Notes under the pieces: generated by a model | What the model was told of the DNA's origin: nothing | Database searches by the model: none | What the model saw: the letters and a program-made list of their open reading frames with translations, nothing else | Origin: an uncultured Trueperaceae bacterium | GTDB lineage: Bacteria > Deinococcota > Deinococci > Deinococcales > Trueperaceae | Direction of reading: 5' to 3' | Assembly (NCBI GenBank): GCA_963815215.1 | Contig: CAWFFU010000011.1 | Span: 64,001-128,000, forward strand | DNA: 64,000 nucleotides | Program-made: the position numbers and the translations under genes | Shown: one piece after another, positions 2,796 to 40,955 of the stretch | Numbering within the stretch: the first letter of the stretch is position 1 | How the letters are laid out: the number at the start of each line of letters is the position of its first letter

Positions 2796-3839
2796 ATGCG
2801 ACTGCTCGCTCGTCCCTCGCTGCCCCCACTCTCCGCCCTCCGCACACTTCCGCGCGGCCTCGTCCTGGCGGGCGCCCTTGCGCTAGTGGCCAGCCTGGTG
2901 GCGCGCCTGCCCGGGCTCGCCACGCTCGGCCCGCTCGGGATCGCCATGATCCTGGGCGTGCTGTGGCGGACTACGGTAGGTCTCGGGAACGCGCTGCTGC
3001 CGGGAACGACCTTCGCCGCCCGCACGTTGCTGCGTGCGGGGGTGGTGCTGCTCGGGGTCCGCCTCGACTTCGCGCTGCTCGTGCACGCCGGGCCGCGCGT
3101 GCTCCTGCTCGATCTGCTGGTCGTCGTCATCGGAACGCTGGCGATGGAGCGCCTCGGCAAGCTGCTGGGGCTCGGACGCGGCGTGCGGCTCGGCCTGGCG
3201 CTCGGATCATGCATCTGCGGCGCGGCCGCCATCGCCGCCGCCGCTCCGATCATCCGCGCCAGCGACGACGATGTCTCGGTCTCGGTCGGCATCGTGAGCC
3301 TGCTGGGAACCGTGGGCGTGATCGGATTCGCCGTGCTCGCCCCGTTGATCGGCATGAGCGTGCAGCGCTACGGCCTCATGACCGGTTCGACGCTGCACGA
3401 GGTGGCCCAGGTCCTGGCCGCCGGCGCCGCCTACGGCGCCCGCGCGCTCGACCTGGCAACCATCACCAAACTGACGCGCGTGGCGCTGCTGGCGCCCACC
3501 CTCCTCGTGGTCGGCGCCATCCTGCATCGTCGCGACGCCTCCGCTACGCTCGGCAGCGACCGCCGTGCGGAGCGCCGACCGCCGCTCCTCCCCGGCTTCC
3601 TGATCGGCTTCCTGGCCCTCGGCGCGCTCCGCAGCGTGGGCTTGGTGGCGGGGCCCCTGGTACCCCTCTTGCAGACCGGCAGCACCGTCCTCATGACGAT
3701 GGCCATGGCCGGGATCGGGCTGGCCGTCGACCTCCGGGTCGTCCGCCGGATCGGTGCGCCGGCCGTGGTGCTGGCGGTGGTCGGCTTCGCTCTCACGCTC
3801 AGCATCGCCTCCGTTGCGACGCTCGGCCTGCCGGGATAA
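2796..3839 (+). CDS. YeiH/UPF0324 family membrane protein (putative sulfate exporter family)
   Basis: Multi-TM; LLRAGVVLLG, GSCICGAAAIAA, GSTLHEVAQV, ATITKLTRVALL motifs. Confidence 0.9.
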   Translation: MRLLARPSLPPLSALRTLPRGLVLAGALALVASLVARLPGLATLGPLGIAMILGVLWRTTVGLGNALLPGTTFAARTLLRAGVVLLGVRLDFALLVHAGPRVLLLDLLVVVIGTLAMERLGKLLGLGRGVRLGLALGSCICGAAAIAAAAPIIRASDDDVSVSVGIVSLLGTVGVIGFAVLAPLIGMSVQRYGLMTGSTLHEVAQVLAAGAAYGARALDLATITKLTRVALLAPTLLVVGAILHRRDASATLGSDRRAERRPPLLPGFLIGFLALGALRSVGLVAGPLVPLLQTGSTVLMTMAMAGIGLAVDLRVVRRIGAPAVVLAVVGFALTLSIASVATLGLPG

Positions 3840-30622: not shown

Positions 30623-33097
30623 CTACCCCTGCGTCTCGGCACGCCAGCGCTTGCGGATGCGCCGTATGCGCGCGTTCGCGAGCGGCCGCCGAGGATCGTT
30701 CGGTGGAAGGTGACGCCGCGTCTCCTCCCACAGCTCCAGGTCGTCCCCTTGCTGGTTGGCCAGGTCGATCATTGCGTCCGGATCGCCCGACGCCAACACG
30801 GCCTGCCGGAGGCTCTCCTCGAGGTGCTCTCGGAGCTCCACCACCGCCGGAGCCTCCGACTCGGGAAGGAGCGGACCCCGATACAGCTCGAGTGCCGCCT
30901 GGACCTTGCCTTCGTGGAGGAGCTCGAGCACCTTCACGAAGTCCGCCTCGTACGCTTCCGCGATGTGATACGGATGCGGCTCGATCGAGATCACCTTGCG
31001 CGCACGCGAGATCGTCGCTTTCAACGTGCTGGGGTTCGCGCGGTCACCGTACAACGCCAACGCGAGGGGCTCCCCACGAATCCCTTCACGGTTCGACGCC
31101 AGAACCGCGATGAGCTCCGCGAATCGCAGGCTGAGCGGTGTCTCCCCGTCGGCCCCGTGCAACGAACGCTTCCCCAGCAGCCGGATCTTCACCTCCGGCT
31201 CGTCATGCCTGAACAGGGCCTTCAGTTGTGCGACTTCCGGTCCATCGCCACCCAAGAGCAGCCAGCCCGAGTCCCCCAGTTGCCTGAGGTAGCGAGCGTT
31301 CTTCTCCATGAGGGCGCGGGCTTCTTCGGGGCGGTCCCTCCGGACAAGGGATCTCGCAAGGTGAAGCGTCGCGCGAGCATTAAACGGTCCAATCGGCCTC
31401 GTTTGCATGCCAGCAAGAGCGGCCCTCAGGTGCTCTTCACCGTCGCGCCATTTCGAGTGAACCAACGCCGAACCCAAGTTGAGTCGCGCAACGTCCCGCT
31501 GGAACCCAGGTGCAAGGTCCGAAAGCTCACTTGCCTTCGTTGCAGTCTCGAGAGCCGCGCCCGTATCCCCAATCATCAGATATGCGAACACCAGGTCGGA
31601 TGCCATACTCGGAAACATGCCAGCCGGCGAAGCTTCCACGTTCAGGCTGTAGTACTCCAATGCCTCGTCATGCCTTCCTTCAACGATCGCAAGGTCGCCC
31701 AGAGTAGACCGGATTCCCTCGGTAGACGGAATCCCGAGGGTACCTTCCGTGAGTCTCACGGTATCCAGCAACTGTCTGGCAGCCTTCACGGCACCGGTCA
31801 GAATCTTCGGGTAACCCGCGACGCCTACGACAAGTAGCCGCAATAGCTCCTCGCGCAATTCATGCATCTGATATTGCTGTACTGCCCACGCCCCCCAATG
31901 CCCCGCGCGCTCATAGGCACCGGAGAAGACATGAACCTGCGCAATTCCTGCAGCGGCCGAAACGGCCAGACGCGGTCTCGCCTCCCCCTCAGCCAATTCG
32001 ATTGTCTCCTTGTAGAGACGTTCGGCCGCGGTGAAGTCACCAAGAAACTCGTTTATAAATGCCAAGGATCTCGCTGTCTCCGGACTACGCCGTGTGCGGT
32101 GAGCTCGAGTGGCCTCGCCCAACGATCGGTCGTTGAATTCCACAGCCGCACGCAAAGCCCGAAGATCAGGCGCGTCATGAGCTTCAAGATACTTGTCGAC
32201 CCTTGGGAGCATTGAGCGCCACTTGTTGACCGCTATTGCACTGTTGAACATCCAATACATGAATTCCTCTTGCCTGAACATCCAACGGGGTACTTCTGAC
32301 ATATATCGCCAGAATCGCTCGAACTCACCGGCTTCAAAGTAGGCGTTTCCGGCCTCGCCAAGAACCTCGGCCAACCGGGTTTGAGCGTGGTCAAAAGCAA
32401 ATTCAAATGCTTCGATCCATCGCTTGCGTGCAATCAGCACGTCGATGACTCCGTTGACTCCTTCACGAAATGCGGCCCCGAGGTAGTCGCCCAAGAGACC
32501 CTGATTTGACTGCGTCCTCCGATTCAGCATGAGTGCATCTTCTATAGCGCTTAGCGCTCCGCCAGCGTCCATCACGGCCCGCTGAATATCGTGCGGGTCA
32601 CGCTCCAGCTCGAATAGTTCCTGAGCTTCCGCAATCGTGATTCGGAGATCAGACCCTTCGATAGGAGAGGTGACGATTGCCTCCGCTATCGAAGGAATCA
32701 CTTCGCAGGCATGCAGCACGAGTAGATTGGGAGAGCGAATCGACTCGAGAAGGCGAAGGGCCAGTTGGGGAGACTCGTCAGCGTTGACAACGGCAACAGT
32801 AATCGGCTCAAGGGCTGGCAGGAAGGACTCAAACACCGCAAACGCATACTCTTCACCAACCCCAAGACCGAACAAGGAGGAGCCTAGCCCGCGGCGGAGG
32901 GCTTCCGACAACGCGTTTCCAACGCTCACGGAGTCGCTGCACTCAACTTCGCGCAAATCCAAGAAGACAAGGGGCTGCTCTGGGTCACGTAGGCCAACGA
33001 ACACGCGCCGGAGCCCCCACTCGTCTCCTGCGACCACGAAGACCGGCGACGGCATCTCAAGAAGAGTGCGACGTACGCGCTCGAACCACGTATTCAT
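30623..33097 (-). CDS. Large (824 aa) regulator: degenerate MalT-like N-terminus, TPR-like helical middle, C-terminal winged-helix plus short BTAD-like region
   Basis: AAGGAGG RBS before ATG 33097; TPR-like helices (LGDLAIVEGRHDEALEYY); C-terminus IRLLG...RFAELIAVLAS...TLKATISRARK...YRGPLLPESEAP. Confidence 0.75.
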   Translation of the reverse strand: MNTWFERVRRTLLEMPSPVFVVAGDEWGLRRVFVGLRDPEQPLVFLDLREVECSDSVSVGNALSEALRRGLGSSLFGLGVGEEYAFAVFESFLPALEPITVAVVNADESPQLALRLLESIRSPNLLVLHACEVIPSIAEAIVTSPIEGSDLRITIAEAQELFELERDPHDIQRAVMDAGGALSAIEDALMLNRRTQSNQGLLGDYLGAAFREGVNGVIDVLIARKRWIEAFEFAFDHAQTRLAEVLGEAGNAYFEAGEFERFWRYMSEVPRWMFRQEEFMYWMFNSAIAVNKWRSMLPRVDKYLEAHDAPDLRALRAAVEFNDRSLGEATRAHRTRRSPETARSLAFINEFLGDFTAAERLYKETIELAEGEARPRLAVSAAAGIAQVHVFSGAYERAGHWGAWAVQQYQMHELREELLRLLVVGVAGYPKILTGAVKAARQLLDTVRLTEGTLGIPSTEGIRSTLGDLAIVEGRHDEALEYYSLNVEASPAGMFPSMASDLVFAYLMIGDTGAALETATKASELSDLAPGFQRDVARLNLGSALVHSKWRDGEEHLRAALAGMQTRPIGPFNARATLHLARSLVRRDRPEEARALMEKNARYLRQLGDSGWLLLGGDGPEVAQLKALFRHDEPEVKIRLLGKRSLHGADGETPLSLRFAELIAVLASNREGIRGEPLALALYGDRANPSTLKATISRARKVISIEPHPYHIAEAYEADFVKVLELLHEGKVQAALELYRGPLLPESEAPAVVELREHLEESLRQAVLASGDPDAMIDLANQQGDDLELWEETRRHLPPNDPRRPLANARIRRIRKRWRAETQG

Positions 33098-33230
33098 CTT
33101 GCCCTCCTTGTCAACTACTCCTCCTTGCTGTAGCCCCCGTGGGTCTGGTCTGAGTCCCCAACCCCCGTACAGCAAGCCTCAACTACTTGTTCCTGATCTT
33201 CCACCTCGGCAACCATCTATGCTCAGTTCA

Positions 33231-34456: not shown

Positions 34457-35446
34457 TCAGATCGCGAACGGCGCGACCGACTCAGCCTTGGCCGACCCGT
34501 TGACCGAAGGGCTAGCGATCGCGGTACCATACTCGACCTGGCCTGCGTCTATCAACGATTCGAAGACAGGCACGATACTCGGATCAAACTGCGTTCCTGC
34601 ACCGTTCACAACGTACCTCAGGGCCTGTCCAACAGGCATGGGGCTTCTGTAAGGCCGCAAACTGGTCAGAGCCTCAAAGACATCCGCGATAGCGATGATG
34701 CGGGACAACTTCGGAATCTCGTCTCCTCGATATCCGAGAGGGTACCCGAGCCCGTCCCATCGCTCATGATGAGCTCGAACCACGTCAGCAATTGGTCTGA
34801 AGCCCTGAGACACGGACGCCAATAGATCTGCGCCATAACCGGGATGCCGCCGGATCTCGGCAAATTCGTCTTCCGAAAGTCGACCATTCTTCATAAGGAT
34901 GTACTCGGGCACAGCAATCTTTCCAATGTCATGGAGAAGGGCGGCCCAGTAGAGCACGTCCAAATCCTCCGCGCTCAATCCCAGGGCTAGGCCGAGAGCA
35001 ACCGCGTTCTTTGCTACGCGACGAGAATGTCCTTGGGTATGATCATCGCGGACCTCAACCGTGCGCGCAAGGCTTTCGAGAACCCTGTCTCGACCGAGAC
35101 TCGACGAACCACGGTCGATGTGCTGCATGGCCGAGGATGCTTTCGGCGCATGCCGACGTCGCAAGAGCCACGCACTCGCCCCAGCAAAGGCGACATACAG
35201 CACCGCCTGTACTACCCACGGTTCGCGTACTTGCACGAATGTCGGAATTGTCGCGTCCATCGCAGCAACCAGGCCTACCCCAAGAGCAAAGGACAGCCCC
35301 CACGAGTACGCGGCTAGCAGGATTGGAATATACAGCAACTGGAGCGCGGCCAGACGAGTCGAAGGAATCACGATGGACACGATTACCAGGACCATCAGTA
35401 GCGCTAGAACACCAATTCCCTTGGCCGGCAGGCCGTTTGAGCGCAT
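34457..35446 (-). CDS. Membrane-anchored HD-GYP phosphodiesterase (start uncertain: 35446 or 35527)
   Basis: About four N-terminal TM segments; HTQGHSRRV, ALLHDIGK, HHERWDGLGYP, IADVFEALTSLRPYR. Confidence 0.88.
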   Translation of the reverse strand: MRSNGLPAKGIGVLALLMVLVIVSIVIPSTRLAALQLLYIPILLAAYSWGLSFALGVGLVAAMDATIPTFVQVREPWVVQAVLYVAFAGASAWLLRRRHAPKASSAMQHIDRGSSSLGRDRVLESLARTVEVRDDHTQGHSRRVAKNAVALGLALGLSAEDLDVLYWAALLHDIGKIAVPEYILMKNGRLSEDEFAEIRRHPGYGADLLASVSQGFRPIADVVRAHHERWDGLGYPLGYRGDEIPKLSRIIAIADVFEALTSLRPYRSPMPVGQALRYVVNGAGTQFDPSIVPVFESLIDAGQVEYGTAIASPSVNGSAKAESVAPFAI

Positions 35447-35614
35447 CGCCGATCCAGAATCAAGAATCGCGCGCAGCCGCGATATGGCCTTGATTGCGCT
35501 CCTCACGTTGAAGCTCCGGATCTCCACCCCATGATTGCCAAATGCGACAACTCAGGTTTGAGGAAGACGCGTACTCCCACGGCTGACGCCTCCTTTCGGC
35601 GTAACCGCAAAGTA

Positions 35615-35653
35615 GCAGGGTGACGCTTATTGTCCGTATAAACGCCACCCTAC
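35615..35653 (-). terminator. 16-bp hairpin downstream of the propeptide ORF
   Basis: Minus strand GTAGGGTGGCGTTTAT-ACGGACA-ATAAGCGTCACCCTGC followed by TACTTT; three G-U pairs form only on the minus strand. Confidence 0.55.
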
Positions 35654-35722
35654 ACGCACGTCTGGCAAGTTCTCAATCCGTTACGGCGTGCCTACTCCTC
35701 AAGCTGAGTCAGACTGCCAAAG

Positions 35723-35824
35723 CTACCTCTTGATCATGCTCACACCAGCCGTTGCAACGAACGGCATGGCGGCAAGGGCAGCAAACACGATTGCGGCAAA
35801 GATGCGCTTCCCAGTGTTCTTCAT
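35723..35824 (-). CDS. 33-aa secreted propeptide MKNTGKRIFAAIVFAALAAMPFVATAGVSMIKR (candidate signalling-peptide precursor)
   Basis: Below the ORF-track cut-off; translated manually. Basic n-region, 16-aa h-region, A-T-A cleavage motif, 7-aa tail; GGGAGG 12 nt upstream; own sigma70-type promoter. Confidence 0.75.
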   Translation of the reverse strand: MKNTGKRIFAAIVFAALAAMPFVATAGVSMIKR

Positions 35825-36072
35825 ATGTGGTCCCATCCTCCCGTTTGGCCTGCGAAAGGCCACAACTACCTACACAGGTCTCCCAAAGCCTGAGTAGTCG
35901 CCTGCTGGTCTCCCAACCTCGCAGACAAATGACTGGCGGTACTCCGCCACCCTACGAACTGTTTGGAGCTTGAATTAGGAGTGAACCGAACCTCTCCTAT
36001 TAGCTCCCATCTCTTCCTGCACGGCGCCCAGAGGACCCCGAATCAAGCTGGCCTCCCAACCACCTTGATATG
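35825..36072 (-). promoter_or_regulatory. ~245-nt structured 5' leader of the propeptide mRNA
   Basis: Six consecutive hairpins, three with UGGGAG at the apex (36053-36058, 35910-35915, 35880-35885); G-U pairs favour the minus strand. Confidence 0.6.
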
Positions 36073-36078
36073 CGTTAC

Positions 36079-36108
36079 AAGCTACCACGTTGGGCAATGT
36101 ATCGTCAA
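36079..36108 (-). promoter_or_regulatory. sigma70-type promoter for the leader and propeptide
   Basis: TTGACG (36103-36108), 18-nt spacer, extended -10 TG-G-TAGCTT (36079-36084). Confidence 0.65.
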
Positions 36109-36144
36109 CGACGCTGGCATTCATCAGGAGCTTCGACCTAGGCG

Positions 36145-36150
36145 TATAAT
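36145..36150 (+). promoter_or_regulatory. -10 element for the divergent TPR regulator
   Basis: Perfect TATAAT about 170 nt upstream of ATG 36318; no clear -35. Confidence 0.45.
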
Positions 36151-36317
36151 GGCGCTTCCACACGGCTTTAGTGGGATGCGCCTGTGGTCAATTGCGCGCA
36201 CCTAGAGCACCGAATACATTATCGTCGCCTAGGGTAGCCTCTCGGTTCAGTAGCAGCGGGCCTCTCACCTCAGCCCTGAGGCGCACCGCGTGGGCTAGAA
36301 AGGCCCTTGGAACAACG

Positions 36318-37982
36318 ATGAGTGAATCCGTACAGATGATGGTTACTAGGAGATTCCCCGGAATCCATCTCGAAAGTGAGGTCCAGGGTTGGGTCTTCCT
36401 CGAGGAGTTCGAGAAGGGCGTGGCAAGCTACGAAGCCACTACGACGCCCACGGCCAAAGACGATCGTTGGCTTGGTGTCTGCTACTTCCAGCTCTTCCGT
36501 GATCTTGATGCACTTGAGGCATTCTATCGAGCGATCAATCGCGGTGAAGACGCAGCTCGGGTGAACGCGGCGCATCTTCTCAAGTTTGTCGAACGATCTG
36601 AGGAAGCCAAGGAAGAACTCTCGAAGGTCGACCCCGAAACTCTCTGCACGTACGACAGGGTTCTATATCATCGGGTCCTTAGCATTCATGAAGAGAACAG
36701 CGGAAATCTTCGAGATGCCCTGAATGCTGCGGAAGAGGCGTGGCGACGTGTCCAGGGCATGCCTGAGTTCGGCCTACTTGCGCCAGCAATTCTTGTTCAA
36801 TTGGCAATCCTCCACGGGCGCATTGGAAGATCCCAGAGGGCCCTATGGTTTCTCGAACGGGGGCTGCAGTTCACAGGACCACTGGAGAATCTGAAGGTCA
36901 GATTGGGGCGGGCCGCCCTACTCATCAACCTTGGTCGATATCAGGAGGCACATGCAGAGCTAGAGTCAGTCGACCTAAGCGAGGCCCCTGCTTACCAGGT
37001 CCAGCAGCGCCTCCTTCACGGGGAACTTGATTGGGCGACTGGAAATCTGGAGCGCGCGATCCAGCAGTTCACGGCAGCATCTCAATCCGCCTTCGCACTC
37101 CAGGCCACGTACGAAGAGTTCCAGTGCCGTTTGTCGCTCGCATGCATTGTGGGAGCACGGAGGGACTTCTCCGTCGCGACGGACCATATGACCCGGGCAC
37201 AAGCACTTATTACCGACCGATCGGACCGCTTGGTCTACCGGTTCCGGGAAGTGCTCTTGCTCTATTGGATGGGCACGTATAAGCCGCAACATGCTCTTGA
37301 AGAGTTTGGGGCACTGGTGGTCGAGTTTGGTGAGATGGGCCTTCTTCAGGAACAGTGCTCCGTACACCTCCACATCGCGAACATCCTGTTTGAGATGGAG
37401 CGAGATGACTACACCCAAGAGCTTGACCGCGTGCAGGCGCTCAGCGTGTCCCTGCAGAACCAGGCTTTCCTATCGAAGGAATGGACGCTGCTCCCAAGAC
37501 TTCAGAAGGCCTCCCAGAAATCGCATGCTCGGATCGCTGGTCGAAGGAACATAGTCTTCGAAGTATTCACGCTTGGCAGCGAGAGGCTCCTTCTTGCAAA
37601 ACGGCCTGTGAACATCCCACTTCGCAGAGGCGTCGAAGTCTTGGCGTTCTTCCTGGAGAACAAGGCCGTGACCCTCAAGCAACTCCTCGCAGAGGTCTTC
37701 CCCGACGACAAGCCACGGAGCGCCAAGTCCTATTTCCATCAGTTCCGCCACCAGCTGCGTGAGAACGTCGAGGGCCTCGAGATCGAGTACGACGGTGAGT
37801 CGAAGATGTACCGGCTCAAGAGCGAGATCGACATTGTCTGGGACGTGTCGGAGCTGCGGGCAGGGCGGATCATGGGCAAGACCGGGTTGTTCCTGCCTAG
37901 CTCCGGGAACGACTGGGCGCTTGCCATCGACCGCTCTCTGGACACGTACAGGGAAGCCGCCGGAGTGCTCGAGATCGCCTGA
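36318..37982 (+). CDS. TPR-repeat protein with C-terminal SARP-like winged-helix and truncated BTAD-like region (candidate peptide receptor/regulator)
   Basis: Serial TPR-like helices (WLGVCYFQL..ALEAFYRAI, RAALLINLGRYQEAHAEL, GELDWATGNLERAIQQF); C-terminus EVFTLG...EVLAFFLE...YFHQFRHQLRE...WDVSEL...GLFLP...W. Confidence 0.8.
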   Translation: MSESVQMMVTRRFPGIHLESEVQGWVFLEEFEKGVASYEATTTPTAKDDRWLGVCYFQLFRDLDALEAFYRAINRGEDAARVNAAHLLKFVERSEEAKEELSKVDPETLCTYDRVLYHRVLSIHEENSGNLRDALNAAEEAWRRVQGMPEFGLLAPAILVQLAILHGRIGRSQRALWFLERGLQFTGPLENLKVRLGRAALLINLGRYQEAHAELESVDLSEAPAYQVQQRLLHGELDWATGNLERAIQQFTAASQSAFALQATYEEFQCRLSLACIVGARRDFSVATDHMTRAQALITDRSDRLVYRFREVLLLYWMGTYKPQHALEEFGALVVEFGEMGLLQEQCSVHLHIANILFEMERDDYTQELDRVQALSVSLQNQAFLSKEWTLLPRLQKASQKSHARIAGRRNIVFEVFTLGSERLLLAKRPVNIPLRRGVEVLAFFLENKAVTLKQLLAEVFPDDKPRSAKSYFHQFRHQLRENVEGLEIEYDGESKMYRLKSEIDIVWDVSELRAGRIMGKTGLFLPSSGNDWALAIDRSLDTYREAAGVLEIA

Positions 37983-38025
37983 TGGGCTCCGGCCCTGTCG
38001 GCAGCGCTTGTGGTAAGCTCATCAC

Positions 38026-38090
38026 AACGGAAGAGACGGTGGTAGGGAGATCCCGGAGCTGCGGTTGGGAGCCACACGCTCCGGGTTTTT
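38026..38090 (+). ncRNA. Candidate ~65-nt G-rich sRNA, or 3' UTR/terminator of the TPR gene
   Basis: Extended -10 TG-G-TAAGCT (38014-38019); terminator CCCGGAGC..GGT-TGGGA-GCC..GCTCCGGG-TTTTT (38052-38090). Confidence 0.45.
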
Positions 38091-38404
38091 CTGTCGCGGT
38101 ACCGATGGTGATGGGGCCTCCGACCGGCTCCCCGCCTGGCCCGCCACGTGACCCGGCATTGTTCTAGGCCCCAAGTCATAGGGCCCAAGGCGTCATGGCC
38201 CCGCCATACGCGCGTTCCCAATGGTTTCCCGGGGCTGCTCCTTGGCATTCGTCTTGGACGTCATCCTGAACGTCGTTGCAGCGCAATCGTCGCGCGCAGC
38301 ACGTCGACCGTCGCGCCCGGGCTACGTGCCGGCTGCTGGACGGTTGCGTGCCGGCTGCGGGACGGCTGTAAGAATCCCGTAAGACGAGCTGGCTATACTC
38401 GCTT

Positions 38405-38493
38405 CGTGGACCTGAGGTAACTCTCCCAGTACCTCTTCCCATCTCTTCCGAAAACCGGGCTCCGCGCCTCCCACGCGGAGTCCACCCTTTTTT
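38405..38493 (+). ncRNA. Candidate ~88-nt C-rich sRNA, or attenuated rpsA leader
   Basis: TATACT -10 at 38394-38399; hairpin with CUCCC loop; linker UCCCAUCUCUUCC; terminator GGGCTCCGCG-CCTCCCA-CGCGGAGTCC-ACCC-TTTTTT. Confidence 0.6.
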
Positions 38494-38717
38494 GGCAACC
38501 CCACGATACAGGCGATCGCCTTCGCGCGCCGTAAAATCCAACGCAGAGTAGTTGTCGGTCCCCGACGCCGTGAAAGGCGTTTGGAGGGCCGGCATGGGCT
38601 GCGCAATCACCGTCACGTCGACCGCGCTTCCGTGCCGCCTTTGCTTGCAGGAGGCACCGGAATTGTGTTAGAAAAGGTAGTTGCCAGCTTAAACGAAATG
38701 AGGAGGAAGCCCCTTTC

Positions 38718-40955
38718 ATGGACGAAAAAGCAAACCCGGCCGAGGGAAGCCCTGTCCCGGCCACCGACCAAGCCCCGGAGGAAGTCACGATCCAGGCCCC
38801 ATCCGCGGCAGCTGATCAGGGAACAGGCACCGCGATGGCGAACGAAAAGGATCTCGACCCACAGGAACGGGCTCCCCAAGAAGACGCCGCAGCGGATACG
38901 ATAGAGAGCGTCGACTCCGACGCAAACGCAGTCACCGAACCGGTGGCTGATGTGCCCGTAGCGGCGCAAGCCGACAACGCGCAAGACGACAACGCGCAAG
39001 ACGACAACTCCGAGATGACGATGGAGGACGTGCTGGCTGCCAGCGATGAGCAGCTCGCGCGCAAGCCTGTCCACCGCGGCATGATCACCAACGGACAGGT
39101 CATCATGCTCTCGCAGGACGGCATCATCGTCGATGTGGGCGCGAAGATCGAGGGCATCCTGCCCTACAACCAGCTCTTCGAGTTCGAGACGAACGCCGAA
39201 GACGCTGCGAAGTACTTCAAGCCCGGCGACGAGATCCAGGTCTACGTCGTCCGCTCGGACATCCCCAACAACACCATCGTGCTCTCCAAGAAGCGGGCTG
39301 ACCAGGAACGCGCCTGGAACCTGTTGCAGGAGATCCACGACAAGGAGAAGCCGGTCGAGGTCGAGATCATCGAGAAGGTTCGCGGCGGGCTCGTCGCCAA
39401 CCTCGGGATCCGCGCCTTCCTGCCGGCCAGCCAGGTCGATGTGCGCCGGGTCAACGACCTCGCGCCCTTCGTGGGGCTGCGCCTCAAGGTCAAGATCATC
39501 GAGCTCAACCGACGCCGCAACCGCGTCATCATCTCGCGTCGGTCGATCCTCGAAGAGGAGATCGCCGAGAAGAAGTCCGAGACGCTCCAGAAGCTCGAGC
39601 CCGGTATCAAGCTCGACGGCGAGGTCGTGGAGATCACCGACTTCGGGGTGTTCGTCAACCTCGGCGGGATCGACGGCCTGGTCCACCGCAGTGAGCTCAC
39701 GCACGGGCGCTTCAGCCACCCACGCGATGTCGTCAAGGTGGGCGAGAAGGTGCGCGTCGAAGTCCTCGACATGGACCTCGAACGCGAGCGCATCAACCTG
39801 TCCATGAAGTCGCTGCTGTCGAACCCCTGGGACAACGTCCTGGCCAACTACAGCATCGGCCAGCGGATCTCGGGCAAGGTCACCAACCTCACCCCGTTCG
39901 GTGCCTTCGTGGAGATCGAACCGGGCCTCGAAGGACTCATCCACGTCAGTGAGATGAGTTGGACCAAGCGCGTGCGTCACCCCAAGGAGATCGTGACCGA
40001 GGGCGACGAGGTCGAGGCCATGATCCTCAAGGTCGACACCAGCCAGCAGCGCATCTCGCTCGGTCTCCGTCAGACCCAGCCCGATCCCTGGAGCAGCCTG
40101 CCGGACCGCTACCCTCCCGGCACCGAGGTCACCGGCCCGATCACCGGCATCACCGACTTCGGCGTGTTCATGGAGATCGAAGAGGGCATCGAGGGCCTGG
40201 TCCACATCAGCGAGCTGAGCCACGACCACATCGAGAACATCAACGACCACTTCAAGCGTGGCGACGAGGTCACCGCGGTGATCCTCAACATCGATCCGGT
40301 CGAGCAGCGCGCCAGCCTGTCGCGTAAGCGGCTCCTCCCCTTCTCTGCCACCGACCTGGAATCCGTCGGCACCGGAGCCCCCGCCTCTCGCGGCGGCGCC
40401 CGTCGCGGCGGCCGGCGCAGTCGGCGCGGCTCGGACATCGACTACGATTACAGCTACGCTTCGTCCGATGCCAGCAACAAGGCCACCACGAAGCTCGGTG
40501 ACGTCTATGCTGACCTCTTCGCCCAGTTCGGTCTGACTGACAACAAGGGCGATCAGGATGAGGACTCCAGCGGGACCGACGAGGCAACGGCCGGCGCTGC
40601 CGAAGCGGCCGAGGCCGGTGCCGAAGCTTCCGCCGACCAGGGGATCGCAGCCGACGAGCCGCAGGCCGCCGTTGAGGCGACCGACACGCAGAGCGAGCCC
40701 GTCGCCGCCGCCCCGGAGGAAGCCGCCCCGGAGGAAGCCGAGCCGGCAGCGGTGAGCGCGCAACCTGAAGTCGCCGTCGAGGCCAAGAAGGCCGATGCCG
40801 ACGAGGTCGACCCCGAGAACGCCATCGATGCAGCCGAGGCCGCGGCCATGCTCACGGCCGCCTTCCGCGAGGGCAAGCGACCCAAGGCAGAGCAGAAGGC
40901 CGAAGCCACGGTCGAAGAGGAGAAGGCGGAGGACGCCGAAACCTCGAACGCCTGA
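38718..40955 (+). CDS. rpsA: 30S ribosomal protein S1 (five S1 domains, long acidic N- and C-terminal extensions)
   Basis: Repeated S1 motifs ([66 protein letters not shown]); GAGGAGG RBS. Confidence 0.95.

Follow-up and report, generated by a model that had tools for sequence, protein, structure and literature searches.

The segment 38406–38493 (+) of a 64,000-nt stretch of DNA from an uncultured Trueperaceae bacterium (contig CAWFFU010000011.1, positions 64,001 to 128,000; the whole stretch is called the window below) is most likely a structured RNA gene with its own promoter and terminator. Its predicted 88-nt product, a small RNA (sRNA), probably acts in trans as an anti-Shine-Dalgarno (anti-SD) RNA that represses or destabilises the mRNA of a nearby gene for a 33-residue peptide. 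Judged by sequence, it represents a new family within a known kind of sRNA, and its predicted target co-varies with it unusually well. A preliminary description of the window had proposed a C-rich sRNA complementary to the leader of this propeptide gene; that observation is confirmed, and comparative evidence supports the interpretation.

The -10 hexamer TATACT is located at 38394–38399 (+), where TAnnnT is kept in relatives, and the RNA, which scores 104.7 bits against covariance model R1, starts with GUGGACC from about nt 38406. Hairpin 1 (38414–38435) is composed of the stem GAGGTA (38414–38419) / TACCTC (38430–38435) and the loop ACUCUCCCAG, which contains CTCCCA at 38423–38428. The single-stranded C/U-rich linker UUCCCAUCUCUUCCGAAAACC occupies nt 38436–38456. 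It is followed by hairpin 2, the terminator, in which a 10-bp GC-rich stem (38457–38466 with 38474–38483) closes the loop CCTCCCA (CCUCCCA in the RNA) at 38467–38473. The 3′ end is a T6 tract (U6 in the RNA) at 38488–38493, preceded by ACCC. The -10 hexamer, both hairpins, the CTCCC(A) loops and the T6 tract all lie where the preliminary description had put them, and a terminator scan also recovered the terminator at 38457–38493. Both hairpins present anti-SD-like loops, and the RNA exposes three pyrimidine-rich, anti-SD-like segments: loop 1 (UCUCCCA), the linker (CCUCUUCCCAUCUCUUCCGAA) and loop 2 (CCUCCCA).

The + strand of the locus folds at -34.0 kcal/mol (z = -4.4), a value equalled by none of 200 shuffles, and the fold of the - strand is less exceptional (z = -2.6). 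In an alignment of 13 sequences, 99% of the cells are paired and 8 of the 16 pairs have changed on both sides; no shuffle or slid register came near the real value. With 54 model hits (44 distinct), 98% of the cells are paired and compensatory changes are seen in 13 of the 16 pairs, those of the terminator hairpin among them, in an alignment that was itself fitted to the covariance model. The latter alignment contains 24 G·U cells that would be A·C on the opposite strand. Since these cells fit the + strand only, the + strand is favoured for the sRNA. The strand, size, promoter, hairpins and terminator first proposed for the RNA are thus borne out by conservation and covariation.

BLAST against relatives found homologues of the sRNA in several genera. 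When these are aligned, conservation spans the RNA and some 40 nt on its 5′ side and does not extend into the flanks. The element has the marks of a trans-acting sRNA, namely its own promoter, an intrinsic terminator and conservation apart from the flanking genes. A covariance model built from 13 homologous sequences was run on genomes of Trueperaceae and of sister families. The sRNA was present in 72 of 101 sampled Trueperaceae genomes, representing 28 of 36 genera (the tally takes in one unpublished genome, G057), and was not found in any of 94 genomes sampled from the order's four other families. Up to five copies are found per genome, some of them in tandem. Public contigs carrying the core motif are labelled as Trueperaceae, Deinococcota or Deinococcaceae metagenome-assembled genomes. 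A pattern search with this motif gave 27 loci, 24 of which were true covariance-model matches; the other three, on contigs labelled Acidobacteria, were not and were rejected.

A search of the whole window against Rfam returned no family at or above its gathering score. A relaxed search (E <= 10) of nt 35500–38800 found no 6C RNA, RsaE/RoxS, csRNA or other curated sRNA family, ar14 aside. The relaxed matches near the sRNA, namely ar14, GlsR24 and an L2 leader, are all at chance level and were dismissed. Ar14, the only sRNA family among the three, scored 17.2 bits (E = 3.6), where its gathering score is 58.8. As far as the sampled genomes tell, the sRNA family is restricted to Trueperaceae and is new as a family, its kind being familiar.

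Several further copies deserve mention. A divergent second copy is present in the same genome at L057:1501-1579 (-), which is G000:C3:870859-870937, and scores 38.9 bits; its loops are CUCCCCCA and CCCCCCA, its linker is CCAUCUCCUCUCUUUG, and it has equivalents in relatives. Tandem copies, spaced about 200 nt from each other and every one with a promoter box of its own, are located at L103:3132-3218 and 3343-3429 and at L104:2961-3047 and 3150-3236, and also in L037 and L043. One contig with tandem copies is labelled Ferruginibacter, probably through a binning or labelling error.

The predicted target is the mRNA for the 33-residue peptide MKNTGKRIFAAIVFAALAAMPFVATAGVSMIKR, encoded at 35824→35723 (-) and represented by 29 homologues. 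The peptide had no match in Pfam or NCBIfam. Its N-terminus is basic and its core hydrophobic; a small-x-small site then precedes a conserved G, and the seven-residue tail ends in R, reading GVSMIKR in the window and GLHYSQR, GVHFSQR or GQFWSQR elsewhere. It looks like a secreted propeptide made up of a signal peptide and the seven-residue tail. The gene occurs once per genome, in a synteny that is stable across genera. A diverged propeptide of genome G012, MKRIARF...AFAAGLEHRSAPGVQAGLEHR (L147, that is G012:C1:2266300-2267600, minus strand, about 680-550), carries two GLEHR repeats after the signal-like part, which suggests a short processed peptide as the product. A DNA pattern for the start of the peptide gene both over-calls and under-calls, and its 31 of 101 genomes are not the distribution of the cassette. 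Its matches in G110 and G081 and one in G103 are unrelated longer proteins and were discarded, and it missed the diverged peptides of G024 and G012.

The peptide mRNA has a predicted promoter at 36079–36108 (-), consisting of TTGACG (36108→36103), an 18-nt spacer and TAGCTT (36084→36079), from which a leader of about 245 nt would follow. The pattern TTGACN-N16-19-TAnnnT is found on the peptide strand in 21 of 29 homologous leaders. The leader is accordingly placed on the minus strand, in agreement with the preliminary description. Predicted hairpins with UGGGAG(A/G) loops occur at 35880–36058 (-); the three loop motifs reported before are found as their + strand complements, CTCCCA at 35880–35885 and 35910–35915 and CCTCCCA at 36052–36058. 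Across genomes, a leader of 266 nt contains one to seven GGGAG motifs. The ribosome-binding site (RBS) of the peptide gene, CGGGAGGAUGGGA, is at 35844→35832 (-).

The 13-mer TCCCATCTCTTCC occurs exactly twice in the window, both times on the + strand, at 36005–36017 and at 38437–38449 within the linker of the sRNA, and none of 100 shuffles of the window gave two or more copies. The leader side of this identity, which was noticed at the outset, reads GGAAGAGAUGGGA. It forms the core (36017→36005) of a distal leader element at 35981–36022 (-) that is complementary to the 5′ half of the sRNA, nt 1–50, so that the pairing extends well past the 13 nt originally seen. In the same element GGAGAGG (35997→35991) faces loop 1 and GGUUCAC (35987→35981) faces the 5′ end of the sRNA. 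In 20 of 26 genomes, the distal element is positioned between -165 and -199 relative to the ATG. In the window's genus it is also picked up by the covariance model of the sRNA, which counts towards this leader being the target. Co-linear complementarity between sRNA nt 1–54 and the element amounts to 35–45 bp in 13 genomes. Compared with 200 dinucleotide shuffles, this duplex was matched by none in five genomes and by at most 3 of 200 in nine of the 13, with z-scores from -0.7 to -5.5.

The RBS of the peptide gene is an additional site. In the window genome the RBS sequence GGGAGGAUGGGA is complementary to the sRNA linker, with 7 bp, a 1-nt bulge and 6 bp (-21.9 kcal/mol), and the match is 11–12 nt perfect in other genera. 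The loops of the sRNA and of the leader are also complementary over 6–8 nt in 25 of 26 genomes, with UGGGAGG facing CCUCCCA and UGGGAGA facing UCUCCCA, and kissing between them is possible.

The complementarity co-varies across species. In the genus of the window the sRNA has CCCAUC and the leader or RBS side has GAUGGG. In G076 and in copy a of G020 the sRNA has CCCACC and the target GGUGGG, giving a 14-nt perfect match in G020; in G053 and G102 CCCGCC faces GGCGGG; and in G045 a one-base insertion in the sRNA is met by a matching one-base insertion in the target. In G015 the sRNA sequence CCUCAACCCAUCC matches the RBS GGAUGGGUUGAG over 12 nt. The linker and the RBS match perfectly over 11–12 nt in G065, G082 and G058, and RBS matches of the same length are found in genus g7. 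The 5′ end of the sRNA co-varies as well, GUGGAUCGAU with the leader AUCGAUCCA in G044 and GUGGAUUCG with CGAAUUCAC in G111. In G012, where 1.28 Mb separate the peptide cassette from the sRNA, which adjoins rpsA, the linker UCCCAUUUCUCUCCC still matches the leader GAGAGAAAUGGGA over 13 nt and the RBS GGGAGAGAAA over 10 nt, both perfectly. In genera g36 and g27 the sRNA and the cassette are on different contigs and the sites still match. Target complementarity that co-varies across species is what a trans-acting base-pairing sRNA would be expected to display.

Cognate pairs of sRNA and leader were also compared with permuted pairs. At the distal site the cognate energy was -34.9 kcal/mol against -32.1 ± 0.8 for permuted pairs (p = 1e-4), and at the RBS -27.8 against -25.2 ± 0.9 kcal/mol (p = 5e-4). 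With one representative per genus, p was 0.021 for the distal site (8 genera) and 0.0024 for the RBS (9 genera); the lineages are related, and all these p values overstate the case. The RBS sites are strongest in the lineages without the distal site (g9, g7, g6), and strong distal sites persist where the RBS sites are weak (g36, g27). The pairing of sRNA and leader first suggested by the 13-mer is thereby backed by both co-variation between genera and the permutation tests.

Several observations weigh against regulation of the peptide by this sRNA, besides the relatedness of the lineages and the fitting of the larger alignment. Sequencing runs with near-identical DNA come from soil, sediment or salt-marsh habitats, and no RNA run among those listed covers nt 35600–38800 of the window. 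The U tract is weak in several sRNA homologues. Genome-wide, the exact 13-mer is at chance level and not significant alone; 13 other sites have an exact complement of at least 13 nt to the sRNA, its own antisense strand excluded, most of them to the GC-rich terminator stem and three, about the chance expectation, to the accessible part. The 13-mer is taken as meaningful because of its context, as the core of a longer complementarity in the leader of the peptide gene. By crude energies within its own genome, the distal site comes in at about rank 38 among 3760 seed sites and the RBS at rank 1841 among 21,639 SD-bearing candidate starts, most of which are spurious open reading frames in a G-rich genome. 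The expectation that the leader would rank near the top of the targets is thus only weakly borne out, and ranking by crude duplex energy was discarded as non-discriminating in a genome of 70% GC. The cofold gain of the window pair, -20.0 kcal/mol with 25 intermolecular bp, resembles that of composition-matched, mononucleotide-shuffled sRNAs (-19.2 ± 4.0), and the gains in G017 and G111 are likewise no better than shuffles; in some genomes the gain is clearly above them, for example G045 (-35.8 against -16.7). The co-variation could in part reflect common descent of the two elements and not selection for pairing. The commonest context of the sRNA, directly upstream of rpsA, and its presence in genomes with no cassette found also count against the reading and are taken up below with the alternatives. 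Separately, an extremely G-rich region with GGGGAGG runs around G000:C14 80960-81170 (-) tops every hybridisation ranking against the sRNA.

From the conservation, structure, promoter box, complementarity and co-variation described here we infer a course of events in which the production of the sRNA, its activator, the sign of its effect and the role of the peptide are all predictions. The sRNA would be transcribed from a direct-repeat promoter when the activator binding the box is active, and transcription would stop at the 10-bp hairpin and U6. The RNA would then dock on the leader, possibly by loop-loop contacts at first, and its 5′ half would pair co-linearly with the distal element, some 190 nt ahead of the ATG. 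The linker would pair with the RBS GGGAGGAUGGGA as a second site, occluding it and blocking translation, and the long duplex may open the mRNA to cleavage by a double-strand RNase. The likely outcome is a lowered output of peptide. The leader is predicted to fold with the distal site's 3′ part paired to the conserved downstream sequence AGCUCCAA, so binding of the sRNA could also remodel the leader.

The direct-repeat box TGTAAGA-ATCC-CGTAAGA is located at 38367–38384 (+) and ends 9 nt before the -10 hexamer. GTAAGA-N5-GT.A is found at a fixed position (-38/-39) in 31 of the 37 sRNA copies examined, followed after 8–10 nt by TAnnnT, and the box and -10 also accompany sRNA copies distant from both rpsA and the cassette. 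When the 3.3-Mb genome (70% GC) was scanned with a position weight matrix made from the sRNA boxes, only 16 sites exceeded 14 bits, and nearly all of them are followed by TAnnnT. Pilus-related genes behind these boxes encode a type IV pilin, a pilin-like protein and a pilT-like ATPase (preceded by four tandem repeats); other boxes stand before a gene for a leaderless receiver-domain protein, before another C/U-rich sRNA candidate, unrelated to the present one, and before two loci with cyclic di-GMP (c-di-GMP)-II riboswitches. All three riboswitches match RF01786 above its gathering score of 53.5 bits. Two form a tandem pair at L136:64-146 and 252-337 (+; 69.1 and 60.2 bits), and the third is at L137:244-327 (-; 65.0 bits). 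The box thus takes the place of the -35 region and is common to a small regulon; sharing it with pilus and c-di-GMP loci would place the sRNA in that box-defined regulon, with a pilus and c-di-GMP theme. We infer that the box is the site of an activator of the OmpR/SARP type.

Box promoters were noted at L139 (G000:C3:480600-480930), in the L057 region, at G000:C3:356048-356065, at C10:123864 and at C10:266111. The second C/U-rich candidate, L138 (G000:C10:279750-280050, + strand), stands behind the second-best box of the genome. It had no match in Rfam, and it consists of a hairpin, then CCCUCCUCCUUCCUCUU, then a terminator-like hairpin.

The common gene order is the peptide gene (divergent), a gene for a tetratricopeptide repeat (TPR) protein, the sRNA and rpsA. 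The TPR gene (36171–37982, +; likely start near 36315) is divergent from the peptide gene and adjoins it in 23 of 23 loci. Searches of its C-terminus against Pfam and NCBIfam gave TPR repeats only, with no DNA-binding match, and a sequence search gave no match in PDB. The C-terminal 163 residues were modelled by AF2 with a pLDDT of 87.8. The top Foldseek match of the C-terminus is the SARP domain of AfsR (8hvr_I, E = 4.8e-4, TM 0.65), and the fold search also found resemblance to EmbR and to OmpR/PhoB effector domains. The C-terminal domain is accordingly predicted to be a winged helix of the SARP/OmpR type. Proteins of this type bind direct repeats.

The rpsA gene for ribosomal protein S1 (38718–40955, +; Pfam S1 domains) lies 225 nt downstream of the sRNA terminator. 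In 30 genomes of 15 genera an sRNA copy immediately precedes rpsA on the same strand, and the peptide gene is found 1.7–6.5 kb from an sRNA copy, and divergent from it, in 17 genomes of 8 genera. The sRNA therefore tracks with both the cassette and rpsA, which the preliminary description had posed as alternatives, since the common order joins them. Rearrangements are also found: in G012 the sRNA is with rpsA and not with the cassette, in G060 it is 6 kb from the cassette and not near rpsA, and in g36 the cassette adjoins rpsA and the sRNA is elsewhere.

With the C-terminal domain of the TPR protein as the marker of the cassette (E <= 1e-15), a marker that overlooks some cassettes, such as in genus g10, the sRNA was found in 44 of 45 marker-positive genomes, the lone exception being 85% complete, and in 28 of 56 in which the TPR gene was not found. 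By genus the figures are 20 of 20 and 8 of 16. The cassette is thus essentially never seen without the sRNA, and the range of the sRNA is wider; since it is present in genomes with no TPR match, it presumably has other targets or roles. This wider range would suit a general anti-SD sRNA with many G-rich targets, in which the match to the leader is a relic of an old sRNA duplicate, or a by-product of GGGAG motifs, and the peptide is not specifically regulated. In the same direction, the unfiltered covariance model aligns the distal element to the whole sRNA, on the sRNA strand, in all seven loci from the genus of the window (6.6–13.6 bits) and weakly in four more loci, with the blocks GUGGACC, CUCCC, UCCCAUCUCUUCCGAA and CCAACC in common, as a degenerate paralogue would align; the window leader is bound about equally by shuffled sRNAs, and the own-genome rankings are unremarkable. 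We regard this alternative as unlikely, because the linker and both sites have changed together in at least five lineages, unlinked loci included, cognate pairs outdo permuted ones, and one incomplete genome is the only case of a cassette without the sRNA. The preliminary description held that its reading would fail if the element were conserved upstream of rpsA in genomes without the cassette and did not pair with the leader; the former was found, in so far as the sRNA occurs upstream of rpsA and in half of the genomes with no cassette TPR match, and the latter was not.

A type I toxin-antitoxin-like pair, in which the peptide is a membrane toxin and the sRNA, as its antitoxin, binds the RBS and a standby site in the leader, would account for a small peptide predicted to be hydrophobic, a structured leader of about 245 nt, and complementarity to both an upstream leader site and the RBS. 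It would also agree with the asymmetric dependence, in which the cassette needs the sRNA and the sRNA can do without the cassette. The peptide, however, resembles a cleavable signal peptide with its small-x-small site, conserved G and seven-residue tail ending in R, it is paired in all 23 loci with the divergent TPR/winged-helix gene, and its synteny is stable across genera with a single copy per genome. A signalling propeptide fits these features better than a toxin, which makes the toxin-antitoxin alternative quite improbable. Still less can be said for a cis-acting rpsA leader or attenuator, in which the hairpin and U tract are regulated by the helix GUGGAC/GUCCAC, perhaps with the linker sensing S1, a protein that binds pyrimidine-rich single strands. 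The position upstream of rpsA is indeed the commonest one, and the 5′/3′ helix (GTGGAC at 38406, GTCCAC at 38480) shows pairing in 79.5% of the cells across 13 homologues. That helix, however, has a single covarying pair and was equalled by 37 of 500 shuffles, which leaves the attenuator envisaged earlier with little behind it. Full copies with box, -10 and terminator stand far from rpsA in G060, G056, G062, G077, g36 and the best-scoring g6 copies, the distance from sRNA to rpsA ranges from about 0.2 to 1.7 kb, so that contiguity, the rule for a ribosomal-protein leader, is not kept, and a promoter box of a class common to pilus genes would be odd for an essential ribosomal gene. An rpsA leader is thus highly improbable.

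The trans-acting sRNA directed at the peptide mRNA can be compared with known systems, and the closest working analogue, taken as an analogy, is the streptococcal CiaR-csRNA-comC circuit. The available parts of two reports (PMC8186281, PMC4507080) describe a pneumococcal CiaR box, TTTAAG-N5-TTTAAG with an 11-bp period, at 15 promoters, of which the five strongest drive sRNAs. According to the same parts, these csRNAs are several related sRNAs of about 90–150 nt that pair around the SD-AUG of comC, the competence-peptide precursor gene (PMC8186281, PMC4507080). As far as these parts go, the likeness lies in a direct-repeat hexamer box (here GTAAGA-N5-GTAAGA) governing a small regulon and in an sRNA that pairs around the SD of a secreted-peptide precursor gene, peptide signalling being a prediction here. 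In contrast to the csRNAs, the present sRNA belongs to another phylum, has no sequence or Rfam relationship to them, and also has a distal leader site of about 40 bp and hairpin-loop motifs. A wider circuit of this kind, built independently in Deinococcota, can be imagined, in which a secreted heptapeptide from the 33-residue precursor is sensed by the divergently encoded TPR/SARP protein; this protein or another winged-helix activator binds the boxes that drive the type IV pilin, pilT and c-di-GMP-II riboswitch genes and the sRNA; and the sRNA feeds back on the propeptide mRNA, and that of an HD-GYP gene downstream of it, through an antisense-read duplicate of its own gene. We put forward this larger scheme tentatively and consider it doubtful as a whole.

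The CcsR or cuckoo RNAs of Alphaproteobacteria (ar14, RF02344) have, in the part of the account available, two hairpins with anti-SD loops, a terminator and multiple or tandem copies (PMC8034643). To the extent of that account the present sRNA is alike in its two anti-SD-loop hairpins before a terminator and in its multiple and tandem copies. It differs in that its loops are UCUCCCA and CCUCCCA and not the cuckoo motif CCUCCUCCC, the ar14 gathering score is not reached, there is no DUF1127 neighbour, and the single-stranded linker, beyond the loops, carries the co-varying pairing.

Other bacterial sRNAs use related means. The staphylococcal RNAIII and RsaE/RoxS and the actinobacterial 6C RNA bind G-rich or SD sequences with C-rich or UCCC loops or unpaired regions; all of them act without Hfq, and RNAIII uses loop-loop contacts. 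The present sRNA shares the C-rich anti-SD motifs, and no Hfq gene was found in its genome, which is 97% complete. It differs from them in architecture and phylum, with no Rfam match to them at E <= 10. No CsrA gene was found in that genome either, and CsrA was rejected as a reader of the UGGGAG loops. In the type I systems IstR-1/tisB and AgrB/dinQ of E. coli, a nearby, non-overlapping sRNA pairs far upstream in the long leader of a gene for a small hydrophobic peptide, and the dinQ/agrB complementarity derives from repeated sequence. Here, in contrast, the peptide looks more like a propeptide for secretion and goes together with a TPR regulator, and the sRNA is multi-copy and also present without the peptide. 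Judged by sequence, the sRNA belongs to none of the csRNA, CcsR/cuckoo, RNAIII, RsaE, 6C, IstR-1 or AgrB families.

In literature searches for sRNAs of Truepera, judged by title or abstract, and of Deinococcus, none of the papers listed describes a small RNA of Trueperaceae, and to our knowledge few regulatory RNAs are known in Deinococcota outside Deinococcus. For the present sRNA a covariance model is at hand, compensatory changes that arose in nature back its predicted target, and its promoter box connects it with genes for type IV pili and c-di-GMP. If the proposed regulation is true, the sRNA would provide an entry point to post-transcriptional control in a family rich in uncultured members, and it may reveal a peptide-signalling module in a phylum with none known.

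The surroundings of the cassette contain two further genes. The HD-GYP gene (34457–35527, -; Pfam HD_5, E = 6.4e-39) lies downstream of the peptide gene, an arrangement found only in the window's genus (7 of 7 loci). On the far side of it, a second large TPR protein of 850 residues is encoded at 30623–33175 (-) of the window.

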